64,000 nt of DNA from Bacillota bacterium (GCA_019136685.1 JAGVTS010000064.1:3087-67086), one strand, 5' to 3'; positions 48,816 through 60,188 are shown, counted from the first letter of the stretch. Translations and numbers: made by a program. Notes: generated from the letters alone by a model not told the origin.

Positions 48816-48858
48816 GCTAGGTGTTGGCCTCGCTTAATAAGGCTTTGAGGTGGAATCC

Positions 48859-50142
48859 ATGGAGTGGCTGAGGATAGAAGGAGGCCGTGAGCTTCGAGGA
48901 AGGGTGTCGGTGCCCGGCGCCAAGAACTCATGCCTTAAGTTGATGGCCCTGTGCATAATGGCATCCTCTGAATGCACCATCACCAACGTGCCCTCCATCA
49001 CTGATGTCGACACCATGTGCGACCTGCTCCGGGCGGTGGGAGCCGGTATTGTGCGCCAGCGCGCTTCGGTTCTGTCTGTCGACCCGAGGCCGATTGCATG
49101 TACCCGTCTGCCGGAGCAGCTGGTCAGGTGCATGCGCGCCTCGGTACAGGTGTTAGGGCCGTTGCTTGCCAGATTCGGCGAGGTTCAGATGCCATATCCC
49201 GGCGGATGCCCCATAGGATCACGTCCGATAGATCTGCACCTTAAGGGGCTTGCCGCCATGGGCGCTCAGTTTTCGGAGGAGCACGGGCTGATCAGCGGGC
49301 GTGCCAATCGCCTAGTGGGTACGGAGATACATCTGGATTTTCCCAGTGTAGGCGCTACCGAGAACCTGATGGCTGCGGCGTGCCTGGCAACTGGAACCAC
49401 CGTGATACGCAACGCTGCCCGCGAGCCTGAGATCGTGGACCAGCAGAACTTCCTTACGCGACTCGGAGGGCAGATCCGAGGCGCCGGCACCGACACCATC
49501 AGGATCACTGGTGTGCCTGAGCTGGGAAGCACTACTTATCCGGTGATGCCCGACAGGATACAGGCGGGAACCTACATGATCGCCGCCGCAGCTACCCGCG
49601 GCGACATCACAGTCACCGACGTAGTGCCGGAGCACCTGGAGGCGGTCGGGTCTAAGCTGGCCGAGTCCGGAGCGGCCGTTATTGCCTCGGAAGATTCCGT
49701 AAGGGTGGTCATGGGCGACAGGCCGGCGCCCATATCAGTCAAGAGCATGCCATACCCGGGGTTCCCCACCGATCTGCAGGCGCCCATGGCCGCCCTGCTC
49801 ACGGTGGGTCGGGGCACAAGCGTGGTCACCGAGAACATCTTCAACAACAGGTTCCGCTACGTCGACGAACTGAGCCGCATGGGCGCCCAGATATCAGTGG
49901 ACGGCAGGACCGCCATAATCCGCGGGGTGAGTGAACTGACGGGCGCGCGGGTCGCTGCTCCGGATTTGCGCGCAGGGGCCGCTCTTGTAGTCGCGGGCCT
50001 TGCGGCCCGCGGCGAGACCATCATCGACGGCGTAGAGCACATCACACGAGGTTATGACGGCCTTTCCGAGCGATTGGCGTCCTGCGGAGCCCACATCAGC
50101 CATACTGTGGATGCTCCGGAGGCAGCATCCTTCGATTCGTGA
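48859..50142 (+). CDS. murA: UDP-N-acetylglucosamine 1-carboxyvinyltransferase MurA
   Basis: VPGAKNS, active-site Cys loop (PYPGGCPIGSRPIDLH). ATG 48859 preceded by GAGGTGG; GTG 48850 is an alternative. Confidence 0.9.
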   Translation: MEWLRIEGGRELRGRVSVPGAKNSCLKLMALCIMASSECTITNVPSITDVDTMCDLLRAVGAGIVRQRASVLSVDPRPIACTRLPEQLVRCMRASVQVLGPLLARFGEVQMPYPGGCPIGSRPIDLHLKGLAAMGAQFSEEHGLISGRANRLVGTEIHLDFPSVGATENLMAAACLATGTTVIRNAAREPEIVDQQNFLTRLGGQIRGAGTDTIRITGVPELGSTTYPVMPDRIQAGTYMIAAAATRGDITVTDVVPEHLEAVGSKLAESGAAVIASEDSVRVVMGDRPAPISVKSMPYPGFPTDLQAPMAALLTVGRGTSVVTENIFNNRFRYVDELSRMGAQISVDGRTAIIRGVSELTGARVAAPDLRAGAALVVAGLAARGETIIDGVEHITRGYDGLSERLASCGAHISHTVDAPEAASFDS

Positions 50143-50153
50143 AATCCCCTTCT

Positions 50154-50177
50154 GCCGTGGTATAATGGGGTCAGGCT
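50154..50177 (+). promoter_or_regulatory. extended -10 promoter GCCGTGGTATAATGGGGTCAGGC upstream of divIB-ftsA-ftsZ (copy 1 of a repeated 23/24-mer)
   Basis: TGGTATAAT matches TGnTATAAT. The same 15-mer plus GTCAGGC recurs at 58095-58118. Confidence 0.5.
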
Positions 50178-50203
50178 GGTCGCGCCGGGTGGAGGTGCAA
50201 GCT

Positions 50204-50953
50204 GTGCCTGACTATTCCCACATGTCTCAGTCGCCGGAGCGGCAGCGGGGGATACCATTTCCCGCCATTGCGCTGCTCTTTGTCGTTCTGTGCGTCGTCG
50301 CCTTCCTGCACTCTCCGTACTTTGAGATCAGGCAAGTGCGCGTCAGCGGCGCTGACTACCTGCTAGAGCACGAGATCCTGTTGATTGCGGATATCCCTGA
50401 GAAGTCCAACGTGTTTCTTGTCCCCACGAAAGAGATAGAGAGAAGACTCGTCGCTACGCCGCGGATACGTGAAGCGCGCGTAGATAGGATCATCCCCGAC
50501 ACGCTCCGGATCCATCTGGAGGAGCGCGCTACCGTGACTTACCTTCCGTACGGAGGCTACTTCATCGACATCGATGAGCACGGCTGCGCGGTCGCTGTGT
50601 CGGAGGCGATCACCGACCCCGACGTGCCTCTGCTGCTCGGGGTAATCCCTACGTACGTGGCCGTGGGCGAGCGCGTTAAGCCCGAGCGGTCGGTCGCCAT
50701 CGGGGCCGCGATCGGGGCAGCACTTGTACGGCAGAAGATACCCAACCTGTCGGAAGTGGACGTGACCTCGCTAGAAGACGTAGTTATCCGGACTTCAGAT
50801 GGAATCCGCGTGCTAGTGGGTTGCCTCGATGGCATCGAGGAGCGAGTAAGGCTTCTCGATTCGATCCTGGCCTCAGTGAGAGAACAGGGCACGCCGGTGG
50901 ATTATGTCGACGTCCGAGTGGAGGCCAAGCCCGTGATACGGGTGAAACGATAA
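50204..50953 (+). CDS. divIB: cell division protein DivIB/FtsQ (POTRA domain)
   Basis: Short cytoplasmic N-terminus, TM (IPFPAIALLFVVLCVVAFL), POTRA (YFEIRQVRVSGADYL...). GTG 50204 is 6 nt after GGAGGTG (ATG 50222 is an alternative). The listed ORF start 50054 overlaps murA and is rejected. Confidence 0.75.
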   Translation: MPDYSHMSQSPERQRGIPFPAIALLFVVLCVVAFLHSPYFEIRQVRVSGADYLLEHEILLIADIPEKSNVFLVPTKEIERRLVATPRIREARVDRIIPDTLRIHLEERATVTYLPYGGYFIDIDEHGCAVAVSEAITDPDVPLLLGVIPTYVAVGERVKPERSVAIGAAIGAALVRQKIPNLSEVDVTSLEDVVIRTSDGIRVLVGCLDGIEERVRLLDSILASVREQGTPVDYVDVRVEAKPVIRVKR

Positions 50954-51041
50954 ACCGCCGGACGCAAGAGGGAAACGAGCGGAGTTCTAGAATCATGCAA
51001 CGATATGGCGACCCGGTTCGGTGTGGGCGGAGGGAGCTAGT

Positions 51042-52256
51042 TTGGGCAAGAGAGACATCGTAGTTGGGCTCGACATCGGATCGAGCAAAGTATGTGCGGT
51101 CATATGCGAAAAACGCGATGATTCATCCCTGGATGTGGTGGGCATGGGAGTCAGCCCATCCGCGGGCCTCAGGCGCGGGGTGATTGTGGATATCGACTCT
51201 GCGGCGGCGGCCATATCCGATGCTGCCGCGCGGGCCGAGAACATGTCAGGTTGTGCTCTGGTTTCAGCGGTGGCCAGCGTGTCGGGGGCGCATGCAGTGA
51301 CAACATACAGCAAGGGGATGGTCGCTGTTAGCAGGCCCGATAGGGAGATAGGCCAGGACGACGTGGAAAGGGTGCTCGATGCTTCAAGAGTGGTGGCAAT
51401 TCCGCCCGACCGCGAAGTGATCCATGTGCTTCCACGAGAGTTCGTGATAGACGGGTGCCGAGGCATCCGTCGCCCGGTGGGAATGTCGGGTATCAGGCTT
51501 GAGGTGGAGACGTGCATAATCACCGGTTCGGCCACGTCGATTCAGAACGTGCGGCGCGCGGCGGCGCGCGTGGGCCTGGAAATAGATCAATTGGTGCTGC
51601 AACCCATCGCAGCGGCCGAAGCTGTGCTAACTGAGTCGGAGAAGGATCTGGGCGTGCTGATGATCGATATCGGCGGCGCCACCACCGACATCGCGTGCTA
51701 CCTCGACGGCACACTGCAGCACACTGCGGTGATACCCGTGGGCGGAAGCCACATCACAAACGATGTCGCGTTGGTGCTGCGTCTGCCTGTGGGTTACGCT
51801 GAGGAACTCAAGATCAAGTACGGCGCGGCCCGTGCGGATATGGTGAACCCGGACGAGATGTGCGGAAAGGACAACGGAATATCACGGCACAAACTATGCC
51901 AGATAATCGAAGCACGAGTGTATGAGATAATGGAAATGGTCAAGGCTGAGGCGGATGCGCGCGGCCTTGCCGGGCAACTCCCGGCCGGAATCGTGGTGAC
52001 CGGCGGCGCCGCTTTGATGCGCGGCACGGCCGAGGCGGCACAGGATGTGCTCAAACTGCCGTCACGCCTGGGCGTTCCCACGGGGGTATCGGGCATGGCC
52101 GATGTTGTGGCGAGCCCGGCATATGCCACGGCGCTGGGCCTGGTGAAGTATGCGTGGGGCAGTTCAGGCGCGGCGTCCGGGTCAGCCGGCAGGCGCCGAT
52201 CCAGCGGCTTTGCCGCGAACGTTCGTGAGTGGTTTCGGGAGATTTTCTCCTCGTGA
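51042..52256 (+). CDS. ftsA: cell division protein FtsA
   Basis: Actin-fold motifs (IVVGLDIGSSKVCAV, ...DIGGATTDIA..). TTG 51042 preceded by GGAGGGAG. Confidence 0.9.
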   Translation: MGKRDIVVGLDIGSSKVCAVICEKRDDSSLDVVGMGVSPSAGLRRGVIVDIDSAAAAISDAAARAENMSGCALVSAVASVSGAHAVTTYSKGMVAVSRPDREIGQDDVERVLDASRVVAIPPDREVIHVLPREFVIDGCRGIRRPVGMSGIRLEVETCIITGSATSIQNVRRAAARVGLEIDQLVLQPIAAAEAVLTESEKDLGVLMIDIGGATTDIACYLDGTLQHTAVIPVGGSHITNDVALVLRLPVGYAEELKIKYGAARADMVNPDEMCGKDNGISRHKLCQIIEARVYEIMEMVKAEADARGLAGQLPAGIVVTGGAALMRGTAEAAQDVLKLPSRLGVPTGVSGMADVVASPAYATALGLVKYAWGSSGAASGSAGRRRSSGFAANVREWFREIFSS

Positions 52257-52277: not shown

Positions 52278-53351
52278 GTGTTTGAACTAGAGATCGAGAT
52301 CGATCACTTGGCCAGCATCAAGGTAGTAGGTGTAGGCGGTGGCGGCAGCAACGCCATCAACAGGATGATCAGTGCGGGGCTTCGGGGCGTCGAGTTTATC
52401 GCTCTGAACACGGATGCCCAGGCTTTGCGCATGGCTGATGCTCCAAACAAGATACAGATCGGCGAGAAGCTCACTAAGGGGCTTGGCGCCGGCGCGAATC
52501 CCGAGATCGGCAAGAAGGCCGCCGAGGAAAGCCGCGAGCAGCTGGGGCAGTCGCTCAGCGGCGCCGACATGGTCTTCATTACCTGCGGCATGGGTGGAGG
52601 CACCGGTACCGGCGCCGCGCCCATCATAGCGGAGATCGCCAAAGAGCAGGGGGCTCTCACAGTGGGCGTGGTGACCAAGCCGTTCGCCTTCGAGGGCAGA
52701 CGCCGGATGGCCCAGGCCGACCAGGGAATTGCCGCGCTCAAAGACAAAGTTGACACGCTAATCGTTATTCCCAACGACCGTCTGCTGCAGGTAGTGGAGC
52801 GCAACACTTCGATCCTGGAAGCGTTCCGAGTGGCAGACGACGTGCTGCGCCAGGGCGTTCAGGGCATTTCCGACCTGATCATAGTGCCCGGCCTGATCAA
52901 CTTGGACTTCGCTGATGTCAGGACGATCATGACAGACGCGGGCTCCGCTCTCATGGGCATCGGCATAGCGTCGGGCGAAAACCGTGCGTCCGAGGCGGCC
53001 CGCACCGCTATATCCAGCCCGCTGTTGGAGGCCTCGATAGAAGGCGCCAAGGGCGTTCTGATGAACATCACAGGCTCATCCAACCTGGGGCTGTTCGAAG
53101 TGAACGAGGCGGCCGAGATAGTGTCGAGCTCCGCCGATCCCGATGCGCTCGTGATCTTCGGCGCCGTTATCGATGAATCCATGGGCGAAGATCTAAAAGT
53201 CACCGTAATTGCCACGGGATTCGAGACGGCTGTCCGCTCCCAGGCAGTGCCCGCGGGTTCCAGGCTTCCTCACGCCGACAGGGTTCAGATCAAGCCGCTG
53301 GCCGGCGGCGATGATCTTGATATCCCGCCTTTCCTCCGGCGCGCCAGGTAG
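52278..53351 (+). CDS. ftsZ: cell division protein FtsZ
   Basis: Tubulin signature [10 protein letters not shown] and [17 protein letters not shown]. Confidence 0.95.
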
Positions 53352-53393
53352 AAACGCTTCGAATACATAGCCTCCACATAGCAACAACATATA

Positions 53394-53440
53394 GCGGCGC
53401 ATCCATTCTTAAGCAGGCAGGGTGCGCCGCTTCTTCATCT
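53394..53440 (+). terminator. intrinsic terminator after ftsZ (GCGGCGCA ... TGCGCCGC plus TTCTTCATCT)
   Basis: Perfect 8-bp inverted repeat with a 21-nt loop followed by a T-rich tract, 43 nt after the ftsZ stop. Confidence 0.55.
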
Positions 53441-53537
53441 CGGAATCCATCGCGCCGTTCGTCGCCCTAACCCGACACCTTTCGGAGTGAGGGGGTGCTA
53501 CACTGAATACAATTGCGTAGTGGGGGGGGTGCCGCAG

Positions 53538-54437
53538 GTGATCCGCTTGTATGTCGACTCCCTGCTACTCCTGGCCGGCAGCACGTTCATCCTCGACCTG
53601 GTCACCTTGTGGGCTGTAAGGCAGATAGGCGGCGCGGGCGCGCCCAAAGCTAGATCCGGGCCCAGGCTGGCGGCTGGGGCCGGCTTGTCGACGGCAGTGT
53701 TCGTGGCCATGGCGAGCTTGGCACAGGCGGGGCTAGTCAGCCTGACGTCAGGCGTCTCGATTCTGGCCGCGGCGGCTGGAGCCGGCGCTTCGCTGATCCT
53801 GGCTTTCCCCGGGATGTCGGTGCGAGGCGCGGTTACGGCGTTTGTCTACCGCTCTCTCCTGACCGCGCTGGCCGGAGGCGCGGCGACTGCCGCATACTCC
53901 TTTACCGCGGGGAATCCGGCGGCCTCGTTCATCGCGGCCATCGCAACGGTGGGAGTGGTGGCCGAGGCCGGCTGGGGAGCAGTCCATCGCGGCATTCGCG
54001 ACGGGCTGTTCGTGGTTCCCGTCGACATCGATTTCGGCGCCGACCGTGTTTCGGTTCAGGCACTGATCGACACAGGCAATCGCCTGCGCGACCCGGCTTC
54101 CGGCAATCCCGTGATAATAGTGGAGTACGGCGCGATCGAGTCCGCACTGCCCTGGCAGGTCAGGGCAGCTTTAGCCAAGTCCGATGACGACTTCATGGCT
54201 CGGGCGCGGGCTGTCGCCGGTTCGACCTGGTCGTCGCGGTTCAGAGCCGTTCCGTACTCCTCCGTAGGCAGGGAGAAGGGGATGATGGTAGGCTTCAGGC
54301 CCGACCGAGTACGCGTGGCGGACGGCAGGAGAATGGTCACTACTTCGCGCGCTGTAGTATGCGTTCATACATCCGCACTATGCCCGGGAGGCAACTACCG
54401 GGCGCTGGTCAACCCGGATATCCTGACGGTCGCGTGA
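53538..54437 (+). CDS. spoIIGA: sigma-E processing aspartic peptidase SpoIIGA
   Basis: Five N-terminal TM helices and the catalytic [11 protein letters not shown] (D-T-G). GTG 53538 after a poly-G SD. TGcTACACT extended -10-like element at ~53496-53504. Confidence 0.85.
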
Positions 54438-54460
54438 GTCCACATGGGAGGCTTGCTCAG

Positions 54461-55189
54461 ATGGAGATGATTGAGAGAGCCCTCTGGATAGTACGATTGC
54501 TGCTCATCAAGCTCCTCGGCAGACTGGCTACGGCCGACGACTCAGTCTGTTACGTGGGGAGCCACGAGACGCTTCCGGCTCCGCTTACCCCGGACGAGGA
54601 GGCGTGCCTGATCGGCCGACTTATGGGTGGGGAGGAGGATGTCAGGGCAGAACTGGTGGAGCGCAATCTGAGGTTGGTCGTGTACATCGCCCGCAAGTTT
54701 GAAAGCACCGGAGTGGGCGTGGAGGACCTGGTGTCCATCGGTACCATAGGCCTAATAAAGGCCGTCAATACATTCGATCCGAGCAAGCGGATAAAGCTGG
54801 CCACTTATGCGTCCAGGTGTATTGAAAACGAGATACTGATGCACCTGCGCAAGACCAACAGAATCCGAAGCGAGGTATCATTCGACGAACCGCTCAACGT
54901 TGATTGGGACGGCAATGAACTTCTCCTTTCGGACGTGTACGGGACTGACGACGACCTGATATACCAGGCCATCGAGGAGGAAGTAGATCGTGCCCTGCTC
55001 AGCGAGGCTTTAGCCGCCTTGACCGGCAGGGAGAAGCGCATCATGGAGCTGAGATTCGGCTTCACAGGCGGGTCCGAAAAGACTCAGAAGGAGGTAGCCG
55101 ACCTGCTCGGGATATCGCAATCATACATATCCAGGCTGGAGAAGAGGATCCTGATCAAGCTGAGGCACCAGATAGTCAGGGCTGAGTGA
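54461..55189 (+). CDS. sigE: RNA polymerase sporulation sigma factor SigE (pro-sigma-E)
   Basis: Pro-sequence [22 protein letters not shown], then ...[57 protein letters not shown], near-identical to B. subtilis SigE. Confidence 0.9.
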
Positions 55190-55394
55190 GACGATCACTG
55201 CAGCAGTCGGCGGCACGTGCCCAAGTCGCGCCCGGTCGGGGGAAGATCCACCCGGCCGGGCGCTCCACTATCTTGACAGCCAATGTGTTTGCACTCAATT
55301 CGAATAAGTGCAACAGAATAAACGTCGAGCATCGGAGCAATACTCTTACTGGAATCCCGGCGACGCGAAGTCAAGATTGTGGGGTTGTTCCGAA

Positions 55395-56168
55395 ATGGCG
55401 CTGAACAAAGTTGAGATCTGCGGCGTCAATACCTCGAAGCTTCCGGTGCTCTCGAGCACGAAGATAAGGGAGCTTCTGGAGGCAGTGCGCGACGGCGATG
55501 AGGAAGCGCGTGACAGGTTGATATACAGCAACCTCCGGCTGGTGTTGTCGGTCATTCAGCGCTTCACCAACAGAGGCGAATACGTTGATGACTTATTCCA
55601 GGTGGGCTGTATCGGCCTGATCAAGGCCATCGACAACTTCGACCTGGGGCAGAACGTCAAGTTCTCCACATACGCAGTACCCATGATAATCGGCGAAATC
55701 AGAAGGTACCTGAGGGACAATAACCCGATCAGAGTGTCGCGATCCCTGCGCGACATCGCCTATCGGGCTCTGCAGGTCCGTGACAGGCTCGTCGCTGATA
55801 CCTCTCGAGAGCCAACGGTGACCGAGATCGCCGCCGCCTTGGGCCTCCCGCGCGAGGAGATAGTGTACGCCCTGGACGCCATACAGGAACCGATATCCCT
55901 CTTCGAGCCGATATACCACGACGCGGGCGATCCCATCTACGTAATGGACCAGGTGTCGGATGACAAGAACCTGGACGTCAACTGGCTTGAGGGCATTTCC
56001 ATCAAGGAGGCCATGCTGAGGTTGCCGGCGCGCGAGCGCCTGATACTCCGACTCCGATTCTTTGAGGGTAGGACTCAGATGGAGGTGGCCGACGAGATCG
56101 GGATTTCGCAGGCACAAGTATCTAGACTTGAGAAGGCCGCTCTGAAACAGATGAGGGCCTCGATGTAA
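55395..56168 (+). CDS. sigG: RNA polymerase sporulation sigma factor SigG
   Basis: MALNKVEICGVNTSKLPVL...LRLVLSVIQRFTNRGEYVDDLFQVGCIGLIKAIDNFDL...YAVPMIIGEIRRYLRDNNPIRVSRSLRDIAY..., near-identical to B. subtilis SigG. Confidence 0.9.
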   Translation: MALNKVEICGVNTSKLPVLSSTKIRELLEAVRDGDEEARDRLIYSNLRLVLSVIQRFTNRGEYVDDLFQVGCIGLIKAIDNFDLGQNVKFSTYAVPMIIGEIRRYLRDNNPIRVSRSLRDIAYRALQVRDRLVADTSREPTVTEIAAALGLPREEIVYALDAIQEPISLFEPIYHDAGDPIYVMDQVSDDKNLDVNWLEGISIKEAMLRLPARERLILRLRFFEGRTQMEVADEIGISQAQVSRLEKAALKQMRASM

Positions 56169-56182
56169 AGGAGGGTTACGCC

Positions 56183-56962
56183 ATCAAACACGAACTCGCT
56201 GTCAGGGTAATCACGTGCGCCGCAATACTCGCTCTGTCATTCGTATGCTTCATGGCCGCGACTGCTCGCCCTTCCGGAGCTAGGGCGCCTGAAGAGGCGA
56301 CGCCCGCCTACAACTCGGGGAACCTCATCAGGCTGCACGTCGTTGCGCCCGGCGACGATCCCCAGAGCCAGCGCCTGAAATTCGCCGTGCGCGACAGTGT
56401 GCTTGAGGAGACCGGCAGGCTCCTGCAATCGGCGGACGATGCGAATCAGGCAACCCGGATCCTTCGAGCAAACCTATGGCAGATAGAAGCGGCGGCCGAG
56501 GAAGCGGTGGCCAGGAGCGGCACTTCACATCGAGTGCAAGCCGCTCTGGGCACATTTTCTTTTCCGGGCGTCTCGTACGGAAACGCCTTGCTGCCGGCCG
56601 GAGACTACCTTGCTCTGAAAGTGGCGATTGGGCCCGCGTTGGGCGCCAACTGGTGGTGTGTGCTGTTCCCACCCCTGTGTCCGGTGGACCTGGAGAGGAC
56701 ACGCATCCTGGAGGTCGCTGCGACCGCGGGCGATTCCTCTGCCCCAGGTTGGCAGAGCAATGCCGGCGGGCGGCTTCTCACACTTGAACTGGCGATGCAT
56801 GCCGGACCTCTGGCCGGGGCCGTCGCCCGCAGAGAGGCCACGTTCTACCAGATCGCCACCGGTTCTCCGCGTCTGACTCTGGCCCAACTCACCTGGGAAA
56901 TTCCTGCCTGGGCCTGCCGTCTTCTGAAGTGGCCCCAGCTTCAGCAGGCACGCAGCCGGTAG
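56183..56962 (+). CDS. spoIIR: stage II sporulation protein R (SpoIIR), forespore signal activating SpoIIGA
   Basis: IRLHVVAPGDDPQSQRLKFAVRDSV and GANWWCVLFPPLC match SpoIIR hallmarks (B. subtilis IRLRILANSDSDQDQQLKRHIRDAV ... GANWWCVLFPPLC). First ATG is 56252, but the signal peptide (IKHELAVRVITCAAILALSFVCF) is encoded upstream with no canonical start. ATC 56183 lies 7 nt after AAGGAGGG. Confidence 0.8.
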   Translation: MKHELAVRVITCAAILALSFVCFMAATARPSGARAPEEATPAYNSGNLIRLHVVAPGDDPQSQRLKFAVRDSVLEETGRLLQSADDANQATRILRANLWQIEAAAEEAVARSGTSHRVQAALGTFSFPGVSYGNALLPAGDYLALKVAIGPALGANWWCVLFPPLCPVDLERTRILEVAATAGDSSAPGWQSNAGGRLLTLELAMHAGPLAGAVARREATFYQIATGSPRLTLAQLTWEIPAWACRLLKWPQLQQARSR

Positions 56963-57017
56963 AACCGCCTCCTGCCGAAGCCTCAGCGCTTCGATTGCAC
57001 TCATCTGTTGCCTCCTG

Positions 57018-57025
57018 CATACAAT
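57018..57025 (+). promoter_or_regulatory. sigma-E-like -10 element CATACAAT upstream of ylmC (tentative)
   Basis: Matches the sigma-E -10 consensus CATACA-T. A putative -35 (TCATCTG) sits at suboptimal spacing. Confidence 0.25.
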
Positions 57026-57060
57026 GTGAAGGTTCATCATCTCCTGCAGGAGGTGCCTCA

Positions 57061-57330
57061 ATGATTCTCCGAGCTTCCGAACTCCGTGTCAAAGAAGTCG
57101 TCAGCGTCAACGACGGCAAGCGGCTTGGCTACATATTCGACCTCGAGATCGACATGGATACGGGCAAGGTCATTAGCTTCGTGATTCCCGGAGGCGGCAG
57201 GATCCTGGGTTTTCTGGGGCGCGGAGGTGAACTCGTGATCGACTGGGAGAACATCAAGAAAGTCGGCAAGGACGTGGTTTTGGTAGACGACTCCGAGCTC
57301 GCCGGCGCCGGCGGGTACACACCGGGCTAG
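57061..57330 (+). CDS. ylmC: PRC-barrel sporulation protein YlmC/YmxH family
   Basis: MILRASELRVKEVVSVNDGKRLGYIFDLEIDMDTGKV aligns to B. subtilis YlmC MISISEFQVKEVVNVSNGKKLGSIGDIDINVTTGKI. ATG preceded by GGAGGTG. Confidence 0.85.
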   Translation: MILRASELRVKEVVSVNDGKRLGYIFDLEIDMDTGKVISFVIPGGGRILGFLGRGGELVIDWENIKKVGKDVVLVDDSELAGAGGYTPG

Positions 57331-57436
57331 GCACGGCACGCGCTTGGAAAGTGTCCGTATGCCGCAACCAATGGCTTCACTTGCCTTCGAGGGGGGACAA
57401 TATCCGAGACGCATAACACAATAGCGCCGATTAGCC

Positions 57437-57465
57437 TTGAAAGCCGGGGCGCATGATGCTATACT
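57437..57465 (+). promoter_or_regulatory. strong sigma-A-type promoter TTGAAA-N17-TGcTATACT driving the Hint-domain gene
   Basis: Near-consensus -35, 17-nt spacer, extended -10 (TGn), then GGAGGA SD 8 nt before ATG 57489. Confidence 0.6.
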
Positions 57466-57488
57466 GCGCCTGCTGGAGGAGATGCTTC

Positions 57489-57995
57489 ATGCAATGTTGC
57501 TTGCCGGAGAATACAGCATTACTCATCAAAGACTCCACAGGTGAGGTCAAGCGAGTTACGCTGGACTATTTCGATGCCATGCTTAACGACGAACCGGATG
57601 GTCCCGCCCTCGGCAGCCTGAAGGCGCTCGGCCGCGACGGCTGGGTGGAGTTGACATCGGTCAGTCGCAGGCGCCTATGGGAAGGCGAGGAGCTGTTGTG
57701 CGTCCGCACACGTTCAGGGCAGATCGCGTTGACCGGCGACCACAGGATCGCGGTCAAGCGTGGCATGGAGGATATCGTCGTGCCTGCCAGGGACCTTGGC
57801 ACAGGAGACGCCATGATGGTCTTTGAACAGCCGGCGCTGGGCAAGAGCGCTCGTCCTATCGGGGAAGAGCCGGTATTCAGGCCTTTCGGCGTGCTGTCGG
57901 TGATCAGAACCGTTGGCTACGATGGGCGTATGTATCAAGTTGAAACCGCCGACCACACGCTGGTGGCCAACGACTTCCTTACGCACACGGTGTAG
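57489..57995 (+). CDS. stand-alone Hint (intein-like / Hedgehog-intein) domain protein, 168 aa, essentially no exteins
   Basis: Begins MQ-C-CLPENTALLIKDSTGEVKRVTLDY (intein block A with Cys at the junction), has TGDHRIAV (block B T-x-x-H), ends MYQVETADHTLVANDFLTHTV (blocks F/G, with the terminal HN replaced by HT). Confidence 0.6.
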   Translation: MQCCLPENTALLIKDSTGEVKRVTLDYFDAMLNDEPDGPALGSLKALGRDGWVELTSVSRRRLWEGEELLCVRTRSGQIALTGDHRIAVKRGMEDIVVPARDLGTGDAMMVFEQPALGKSARPIGEEPVFRPFGVLSVIRTVGYDGRMYQVETADHTLVANDFLTHTV

Positions 57996-59495: not shown

Positions 59496-60188
59496 TTGCC
59501 GTCTATCTTCGATAATCTTCGTTGTGTGCTCGATAACATCGCCGCGTCCGCCGCGCGGGCGGGGCGTGACCCGTCCGAGGTCCGGCTGGTAGCTGTGACC
59601 AAGAACGTGGACGCGGCCAGGATATGCAGCCTAGTATCGGCCGGCGTCGGCCATCTTGGCGAGAACCGGGTGCAGGAGGCGGCTCAGAAGATCCCGCAGG
59701 TAGCCGGATCGCCTACCTGGCACTTAGTGGGGCACTTGCAGCGCAACAAGGCGCGGCACGCTGTGGAATTGTTCTCGGTGCTCCAGTCTCTCGACAGCCT
59801 GGAGCTTGCGGCTGAGCTCGACCGGAGGTGCGCGACCCGTGGGGTCTCCCTCGATGCGCTACTACAGGTGAACATATCCGGGGAGTCCACCAAGTATGGA
59901 GTGGCGCCTGATGCGGCAGCCGGCATGCTTCGGGAGATGCCCAGGTTCGAGCATCTGCGGGTTCTCGGCCTGATGACCATGGCCCCGTATTCGGAGGATG
60001 CCGAGGATGCCCGGGTCTGGTTTCGGGCTCTACGCCATTTGGCCGGTGAGCTTTCGACTCTCCGCCTGAGCAACGTGGCCATGGACGAGCTGTCCATGGG
60101 GATGTCCGGCGACTATCAGGTGGCTGTGGAAGAAGGCTCGACCATCGTGCGGGTGGGAACGGCAATTTTCGGCCCGCGTGTTCGCTGA
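59496..60188 (+). CDS. ylmE: YggS/YlmE family pyridoxal-phosphate homeostasis protein
   Basis: VRLVAVTKNV (PLP Lys), GHLQRNKA and ...MGMSGD... motifs. TTG start preceded by GAGGTGGGAAG. Confidence 0.85.
   Translation: MPSIFDNLRCVLDNIAASAARAGRDPSEVRLVAVTKNVDAARICSLVSAGVGHLGENRVQEAAQKIPQVAGSPTWHLVGHLQRNKARHAVELFSVLQSLDSLELAAELDRRCATRGVSLDALLQVNISGESTKYGVAPDAAAGMLREMPRFEHLRVLGLMTMAPYSEDAEDARVWFRALRHLAGELSTLRLSNVAMDELSMGMSGDYQVAVEEGSTIVRVGTAIFGPRVR

Follow-up and report, generated by a model that had tools for sequence, protein, structure and literature searches.

The locus considered here raises the question of whether the gene of the forespore signal protein SpoIIR can be transcribed together with that of the late forespore sigma factor, sigma-G. 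It lies in a 64,000-nucleotide stretch from a Bacillota bacterium (GCA_019136685.1, JAGVTS010000064.1:3087-67086), in the following referred to as the window, in which spoIIGA, sigE, sigG and spoIIR follow one another directly on the + strand, uninterrupted by other genes. A preceding sequence-only reading had stated that SpoIIGA, SigE and SpoIIR, the components of the sigma-E activation checkpoint, are co-localised here, and had placed spoIIR in the sigG transcription unit. Gene positions and matches to family hidden Markov models (HMMs) bear out the co-localisation, and a bicistronic sigG-spoIIR mRNA from a forespore promoter ahead of sigG is the best-supported answer to the question and, judging from comparison of loci, a likely one. 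The gene order is ftsA-ftsZ, spoIIGA-sigE, sigG-spoIIR and ylmC, all on the + strand, and the elements on which the argument depends are the following.

53538-54437, + strand: spoIIGA, membrane aspartic protease predicted to process pro-sigma-E (GTG start at 53538 as in the sequence-only reading; reading frame open from GTG 53487)
54461-55189, + strand: sigE, encoding pro-sigma-E including its N-terminal pro-sequence (NCBIfam equivalog models)
55228-55263, + strand: strong hairpin 38 nt 3' of the sigE stop (-33.8 kcal/mol; z = -2.9 for the region)
55316-55344, + strand: sigma-F/sigma-G-type promoter of sigG and putatively also of spoIIR, GAATA-N15-AGCAATACT (motif, position weight matrix (PWM) and conservation)
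55395-56168, + strand: sigG, late forespore sigma factor (full-length TIGR02850 and NF006071 matches)
56168-56175, + strand: Shine-Dalgarno sequence (SD) AAGGAGGG of spoIIR
56183-56962, + strand: spoIIR with predicted ATC start (259 codons); the public annotation (P0001, 236 aa) starts at ATG 56252
56976-56993, + strand: small hairpin CGAAGC-N6-GCTTCG, 14 nt 3' of the spoIIR stop (fold; without U tract)
57018-57025, + strand: CATACAAT, -10 element of mother-cell (sigma-E/K) type, 43 nt before ylmC
57061-57330, + strand: ylmC/ymxH-family sporulation protein with PRC barrel (TIGR02888, 88.5 bits; cut-off 44.2)

The identities of the four central genes are established by their family models. SpoIIGA matches Pfam PF03419 (Peptidase_U4) over its full length (180.9 bits, profile positions 2-284 of 284), and scores 127.6 bits with NCBIfam TIGR02854, which is under the equivalog cut-off of 209.55. 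As only positions 88-293 of the latter profile, i.e., the C-terminal two-thirds, are aligned, the membrane half of the protein is divergent; its N-terminal membrane domain is rich in Ala and Gly. The DTG motif, which contains the catalytic Asp of aspartic proteases of the SpoIIGA family, is present in the translation (codons 54069-54080). SigE, called at an identical length of 242 aa in relatives, exceeds the cut-offs of NF006158 (388.7 versus 339 bits) and TIGR02835 (385.8 versus 348.6 bits), with alignments beginning at profile positions 5-7 and hence covering the pro-sequence. For SigG, scores of 485.6 bits with TIGR02850 (cut-off 457) and 472.7 bits with NF006071 (cut-off 372) compare with only 309.3 bits for the SigF model. 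SpoIIR, whose alignment to its family model the sequence-only reading had left to be checked, matches PF09551 at 133.6 bits (cut-off 25; profile positions 3-126 of 128) and TIGR02837 at 149.5 bits (E = 6e-44), 2.4 bits short of the equivalog cut-off of 151.9, the alignment beginning at residue 15 of the long form. Its core motif NWWCVLFPPLC is invariant in a 17-sequence alignment including the window protein.

For judging the linkage of sigG and spoIIR, a scan for NWWCVLFP with one genome per species yielded more than 600 SpoIIR loci, the 80 best of which were kept, and linkage was called by tblastn with the window's proteins around these. Directly upstream of spoIIR and on the same strand, sigG is found in 25 of the 80 best loci, often within the full ftsZ-spoIIGA-sigE-sigG-spoIIR-ylmC series, and ylmC is the next gene after spoIIR in most linked loci. 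The linked taxa span Negativicutes, Halanaerobiales, Neomoorellales and Thermincolaceae and include Moorella mulderi, Thermincola, Pelosinus (three loci), Sporomusa acidovorans, S. silvacetica, Orenia metallireducens, Fuchsiella alkaliacetigena and Syntrophaceticus. The long-studied, cultured acetogen Moorella thermoacetica DSM 521 has the identical order with a 25-nt gap. All eight loci examined from close and more distant relatives of the window are linked (seven of the clade plus the outgroups L089 and L090, less the duplicate L081/L082). Unlinked spoIIR genes occur in Desulfosporosinus, Desulforamulus, Ruminiclostridium, Acetivibrio, Oscillospiraceae, Lachnospiraceae, Syntrophomonas, Tepidanaerobacter, Wukongibacter and Alicyclobacillus. 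Of the 25 linked loci, 23 have a distance of -4 to about 40 nt from the sigG stop to the best spoIIR start, the longer gaps being 97 nt (L020) and 311 nt (L069), and in most linked loci the SD abuts or overlaps the sigG stop, as in TAG|GGAGGGAGAACGATG and TGA|GGAGGATTAGTATG. As an aside, a contig labelled 'Deltaproteobacteria bacterium' (JAGUVT010000103.1, L017) carries the full ftsZ-spoIIGA-sigE-sigG-spoIIR cluster; the label probably results from misbinning or mislabelling of a Bacillota genome.

The comparison of relatives that had been suggested in the sequence-only reading thus returns a common linkage and not one peculiar to the window, and the unusual, genome-specific wiring implied there is not supported, with 25 of the 80 best-matching loci, from several orders of Clostridia and the Negativicutes and including M. 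thermoacetica, having the same arrangement. To judge from these genomes, the sigG-spoIIR layout is a widespread alternative to that of Bacillus subtilis and is probably ancestral. The remark that it had not been seen described may hold for the open literature, in which no paper describing sigG-spoIIR linkage was found (subscription literature, including Stragier's reviews, was outside the search), but the layout is plainly visible in public genomes.

The search for a sigma-F-type promoter in 55190-55395, likewise suggested by the sequence-only reading, was successful, as a sigma-F/sigma-G-type motif is located at 55316-55344. Of the 24 linked loci that could be tested, 23 have the motif G[TA]ATA-N15-GG[CTA]AATA[AC]T 5' of sigG, as does the window. 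It starts 56-117 nt ahead of the start codon, and the spacer is 15 nt in 24 of 25 sigG promoters of linked loci. This form matches the described consensus of forespore sigma promoters (PMC3789822), and a spacing of 15 nt is typical of sigma-F promoters and prevalent in Clostridia (PMC5942855). The window copy reaches 19.9 bits with a PWM from whose training it was left out. Compared to the sigma-F form (GYATA, 15 nt, GGnnAnAnT), its spacing matches, whereas the -35 has A for Y and the -10 has AG for GG. In the close relatives L082, L083 and L085, -35 and -10 are kept and the spacer is variable. Judged by its sequence, by which sigma-F and sigma-G promoters are indistinguishable, the window promoter is a member of the forespore sigma class. 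A variant shared with the window's clade, GAATAG...GGCAATACT, is seen in the sigG promoters of L003, L035 and L076.

That this promoter also serves spoIIR is suggested by comparing linked and unlinked genes. Among unlinked spoIIR genes, 38 of 53 have their own copy of the sigma-F/sigma-G-type motif over the 95th background percentile, the end of the -10 lying at a median distance of 32 nt from the start codon that precedes the hydrophobic N-terminus. In linked loci, the same threshold is exceeded in the 390 nt upstream of spoIIR in only 2 of 26 cases (25 plus the window; Fisher p = 4e-8). A separate spoIIR promoter inside sigG was also sought directly with the PWM at spacers of 14-16 nt and rejected, the best values in the window being -0.8 bits for the last ~300 nt and 5.3 bits for the whole sigG open reading frame (ORF), while linked loci reach at most 14 bits. 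A terminator or attenuator at the sigG-spoIIR junction was rejected as well, since a simple scan of 53200-57600 found no terminator-like site on the + strand and the junction does not fold better than shuffled sequences (z = 0.20). Hence, in line with the sequence-only reading, neither a terminator nor a promoter between the two genes was detected by scan, fold and PWM. Its claim that spoIIR belongs to the sigG transcription unit is upheld insofar as sigG lacks a detectable promoter, the junction lacks a terminator or structure and the upstream promoter is conserved; co-transcription itself is a conclusion drawn from comparison.

The alternative that spoIIR is transcribed from an unrecognised promoter in the 3' part of sigG, the adjacency of the genes reflecting merely compact genome packing, is considered unlikely. 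Promoters internal to upstream coding regions are common in bacteria. Moreover, the gaps in L020 and L069 could hold a spoIIR promoter, and L030 has a 14-bit PWM match 14 nt before the sigG stop. However, the sigma-F/sigma-G motif is missing from the sigG ORF in 24 of 25 linked loci, whereas such a motif precedes most unlinked spoIIR genes at a suitable distance, and an SD abutting the sigG stop, as in most linked loci, leaves no room for a promoter.

A different origin of the transcript, improbable in our assessment, would be read-through. In this case, most spoIIR mRNA would stem from the spoIIGA-sigE transcript initiated at a sigma-A/Spo0A promoter, synthesis of SpoIIR would precede septation or take place in the mother cell, and compartment specificity would arise post-transcriptionally. 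In favour of it, spoIIGA, sigE, sigG and spoIIR are on the same strand, the GC-rich hairpin at 55228-55263 has a T-poor tail (TCCACTATCT), and B. subtilis and Clostridium acetobutylicum do have a transcript reading through spoIIGA-sigE-sigG (PMC3789822, PMC5942855). In B. subtilis, however, this transcript is dispensable for sigG expression (PMC5942855). The -33.8 kcal/mol hairpin, moreover, is retained at the equivalent place in L083 and L085 with differing stem sequences, and most other linked loci have a canonical U-tract terminator between sigE and the sigG promoter. The hairpin is thus probably a (leaky) terminator or insulator separating spoIIGA-sigE from sigG-spoIIR, and may represent a U-tract-less terminator of a high-GC lineage, the window's clade having 61.5% G+C.

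Read-through is further opposed by loci in which the two gene pairs are not arranged in series. In three metagenome-assembled genomes (L003, L035 and L076), spoIIGA-sigE is inverted between ftsZ and sigG, with sigG-spoIIR intact and the sigG-spoIIR-ylmC orientation unchanged, and in four other linked loci sigE is 1.9-4.4 kb distant. O. metallireducens (L031, L052) even has two sigG-spoIIR pairs. In the second one (L052, 5213-6654), the genes overlap by ATGA, the sigma factor is a divergent SigG-like protein scoring under both SigG and SigF cut-offs, and the pair is located away from spoIIGA-sigE and adjoins a germination permease gene on the opposite strand. In these comparisons, the sigG-spoIIR pair behaves as a module.

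At its 3' end, the sigG-spoIIR unit may be delimited by the small hairpin at 56976-56993, although this signal is weak in the window. Its counterpart in the relative L081 (CGCAGC/GCTGCG) shows a compensatory change, and Moorella and several other linked loci have a canonical terminator right 3' of spoIIR. Downstream, the element CATACAAT, which we take to match the sigma-E/sigma-K -10 consensus, has CATA[CT]A[AC]T-like equivalents 26-80 nt 5' of ylmC in nearly all linked loci and is placed at exactly -43 across the window's clade, which suggests that ylmC has its own promoter. Sigma-E and sigma-K promoters share a -10 (PMC3789822). In the same region (57018-57053) there is a palindrome, CTCCTGCAGGAGG, by which the ylmC SD could be paired with an anti-SD.

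The junction itself depends on where spoIIR starts. The final A of the sigG stop TAA (56166-56168) is also the first base of the SD AAGGAGGG, so that the zero intergenic space claimed by the sequence-only reading is correct with regard to this shared base; the gap to the coding sequence, however, depends on the start codon and amounts to 83 nt with the annotated ATG 56252 or 14 nt with ATC 56183. The spoIIR frame is open from 56132 (stop at 56129-56131), and between this stop and ATG 56252, which is also the start in the mechanical ORF list, there is no in-frame ATG, GTG or TTG. ATC 56183 lies 7 nt 3' of the SD, and the 23 codons from there encode IKHELAVRVITCAAILALSFVCF. Residues 10-24 form a hydrophobic segment (Kyte-Doolittle peak of 2.48), the putative core of a signal or anchor sequence, followed by ATA|RP; this segment is coded only 5' of ATG 56252 and thus missing from the annotated 236-aa form. 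Such a segment is present in SpoIIR homologues of 44-77% identity, and the TIGR02837 profile extends into it. In seven other clade assemblies (L081/L082, L083, L084, L085, L087, L088), encoding SpoIIR proteins 67-90% identical to that of the window, GG[AG]GGG-N6/7-ATCAAAC is invariant, while several of them have GTG, GCG or TCA at the position of ATG 56252. More distant relatives have canonical codons at the ATC position, namely TTG (L090) and GTG (L089).

Hence, comparison within the clade indicates that spoIIR most likely starts at ATC 56183. The annotated start is probably wrong, as its product would be without an export signal, and ATG 56252 was rejected as true start because it is unconserved in relatives and deletes the conserved hydrophobic segment. 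As a practical point, spoIIR of this clade is probably mis-annotated, the public start codon removing the predicted signal peptide. A SigG-SpoIIR frameshift fusion was also rejected, as the junction insertions in L084 and L085 are 22 and 31 nt, neither being a multiple of three. That spoIIR is decaying in the clade, having lost its start codon and being untranslated or giving a cytoplasmic protein from ATG 56252, is very improbable, because, although no ATG, GTG or TTG occurs from the SD to codon 24 and ATG 56252 is the publicly annotated start, the frame, the hydrophobic N-terminus and NWWCVLFPPLC are kept across relatives of 67-90% identity, SD-N6/7-ATCAAAC is invariant in every clade assembly examined with ATG 56252 unconserved, and spoIIGA and the pro-sequence-bearing sigE are intact.

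Several points weigh against a common sigG-spoIIR transcript and a functional SpoIIR made from it. The AG in the window -10, where the consensus has GG, puts its PWM score near the bottom of the training range, and the PWM is blind to a different or degenerate promoter form inside sigG. Both hairpins flanking the unit are without U tracts, so that transcription could run through from the spoIIG promoter or continue into ylmC. In model bacteria, ATC initiates translation very poorly, and real SpoIIR output from it is therefore uncertain. The 25 of 80 linked loci, finally, do not represent an unbiased frequency, because the 80 are the loci that resemble the query best. Nevertheless, the bicistronic sigG-spoIIR mRNA from the forespore promoter is retained as the likely reading.

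On this basis, a course of events can be proposed in which the biochemical roles are taken from B. subtilis and Clostridioides difficile. SpoIIGA and pro-sigma-E would be made as in other spore formers. After asymmetric division, RNA polymerase with, as we infer, forespore sigma-F and later sigma-G would start at 55316-55344 and produce the single sigG-spoIIR mRNA, from which spoIIR would be translated by means of its own strong SD overlapping the sigG stop and the weak ATC start. The signal-peptide-bearing SpoIIR would be exported to the intermembrane space and activate SpoIIGA, resulting in cleavage of pro-sigma-E. As SpoIIR is needed to activate sigma-E, a shared promoter would have to fire early and independently of sigma-E. 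If co-transcription holds true, transcription of sigG would thus be early and sigma-E-independent, sigma-G would have to be restrained post-transcriptionally, and the relocation of spoIIR would be a datable evolutionary step in the sporulation network.

Gene position might be affected as well. In B. subtilis, timely expression of spoIIR requires that the gene is origin-proximal, and the mother cell is favoured by the origin-distal location of spoIIGA-sigE (Khvorova et al. 2000, as reviewed in PMC5034851). As all these genes are adjacent in linked species, the two position effects cannot both apply there. In complete genomes, the linked locus is located at 0.78 of 2.53 Mb in M. thermoacetica and at 2.25 of 5.96 and 2.20 of 6.05 Mb in Sporomusa species, i.e., about 31-38% of the way round the record, and in the single unlinked complete genome, Wukongibacter, spoIIR is at 0.52 of 6.42 Mb. 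Provided that these records start at the replication origin (oriC), linked spoIIR would not belong to the origin-proximal DNA that the forespore captures first, and activation of sigma-E would be timed by chromosome translocation. The joint proposal that the sigG-spoIIR operon is the ancestral wiring of the checkpoint, that spoIIR was relocated later and that sigma-E activation is translocation-timed in linked species is put forward only tentatively and appears more doubtful than not. Were it true, spoIIR may have been transferred in Bacilli and lineages of the Clostridium and Lachnospiraceae/Oscillospiraceae types to an origin-proximal site, under a sigma-F promoter of its own. This transfer would have separated the early signal from sigG and permitted the dampened 14-nt sigG promoter of Bacilli, and the weak ATC start of the window's clade would lower the SpoIIR dose further.

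Between 48.8 and 60.2 kb, the + strand carries the distal part of the division/cell-wall (dcw) cluster followed by sporulation genes; this sporulation segment, with which the dcw cluster closes, is conserved. Apart from the elements given above, the region comprises the following features.

48850-50142, + strand: murA-type enolpyruvyl transferase
50054-50953, + strand: ftsQ/divIB
51021-52256, + strand: ftsA
52278-53351, + strand: ftsZ
53394-53430, + strand: hairpin 3' of ftsZ, followed by CTTCTTCATCT (12-bp outer stem in fold), terminator-like boundary upstream of the spoIIG unit
57453-57995, + strand: 180-aa ORF without family assignment between ylmC and the HlyD-like gene (begins ..CLPENTALL, ends ..THTV)
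after the 180-aa ORF, + strand: gene of an HlyD-like protein
59496-60188, + strand: ylmE

The hairpin 3' of ftsZ was missed by the simple terminator scan because its loop is long. For the 180-aa ORF, the sole match is a sub-threshold one to Pfam Intein_splicing (E = 0.033); at the equivalent site, L083, L085, L087, L089 and L090 have a 168-aa gene without Pfam matches. Rfam models gave no match at gathering score in the whole window and two chance-level matches at E < 1 in 48-62 kb.

Proteins and pathway of this system are textbook matter. It is the layout of the transcription unit that differs from the model organisms, being common across deep branches of spore-forming Bacillota and little discussed, and its consequences are testable in cultivable species such as M. 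thermoacetica and Sporomusa. Compared to other linked loci, e.g., those of M. thermoacetica, Sporomusa, Pelosinus, Orenia, Thermincola and many metagenome-assembled genomes, the window has the same gene order, short gap, motif 5' of sigG and none within it, and CATA..T -10 before ylmC. In those loci, however, spoIIR starts with ATG, GTG or TTG and mostly U-tract terminators follow sigE and spoIIR, whereas the window's clade has ATC and GC-rich hairpins without U tracts. From the sequences compared, the ATC start and the U-poor hairpins are the only differences between the window locus and the public linked genomes.

The components of the B. subtilis checkpoint, namely SpoIIGA, pro-sigma-E with its pro-sequence, sigma-G and SpoIIR with a signal sequence (predicted for the window, given the ATC start), recur in the window, as do the order spoIIGA-sigE-sigG beside ftsZ and a forespore-type promoter ahead of sigG. 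In B. subtilis, spoIIR has its own sigma-F promoter. There, the gene is unlinked and origin-proximal (PMC5034851), whereas it stands behind sigG in the window, and the sigG promoter has a dampening 14-nt spacer (PMC5942855), compared to 15 nt in the window. In C. difficile, spoIIGA, sigE and sigG are clustered as well, the sigG promoter is nearer to the sigma-F form and processing of pro-sigma-E requires spoIIR; unlike in the window, however, spoIIR is separate and sigma-F-dependent with its own native promoter, and no sigG-spoIIR transcript is described for it (PMC3789822). By analogy, the system of the window would therefore work like the checkpoint of B. subtilis and C. difficile, proceeding from sigma-F via SpoIIR and SpoIIGA to sigma-E, with an operon layout differing from both.

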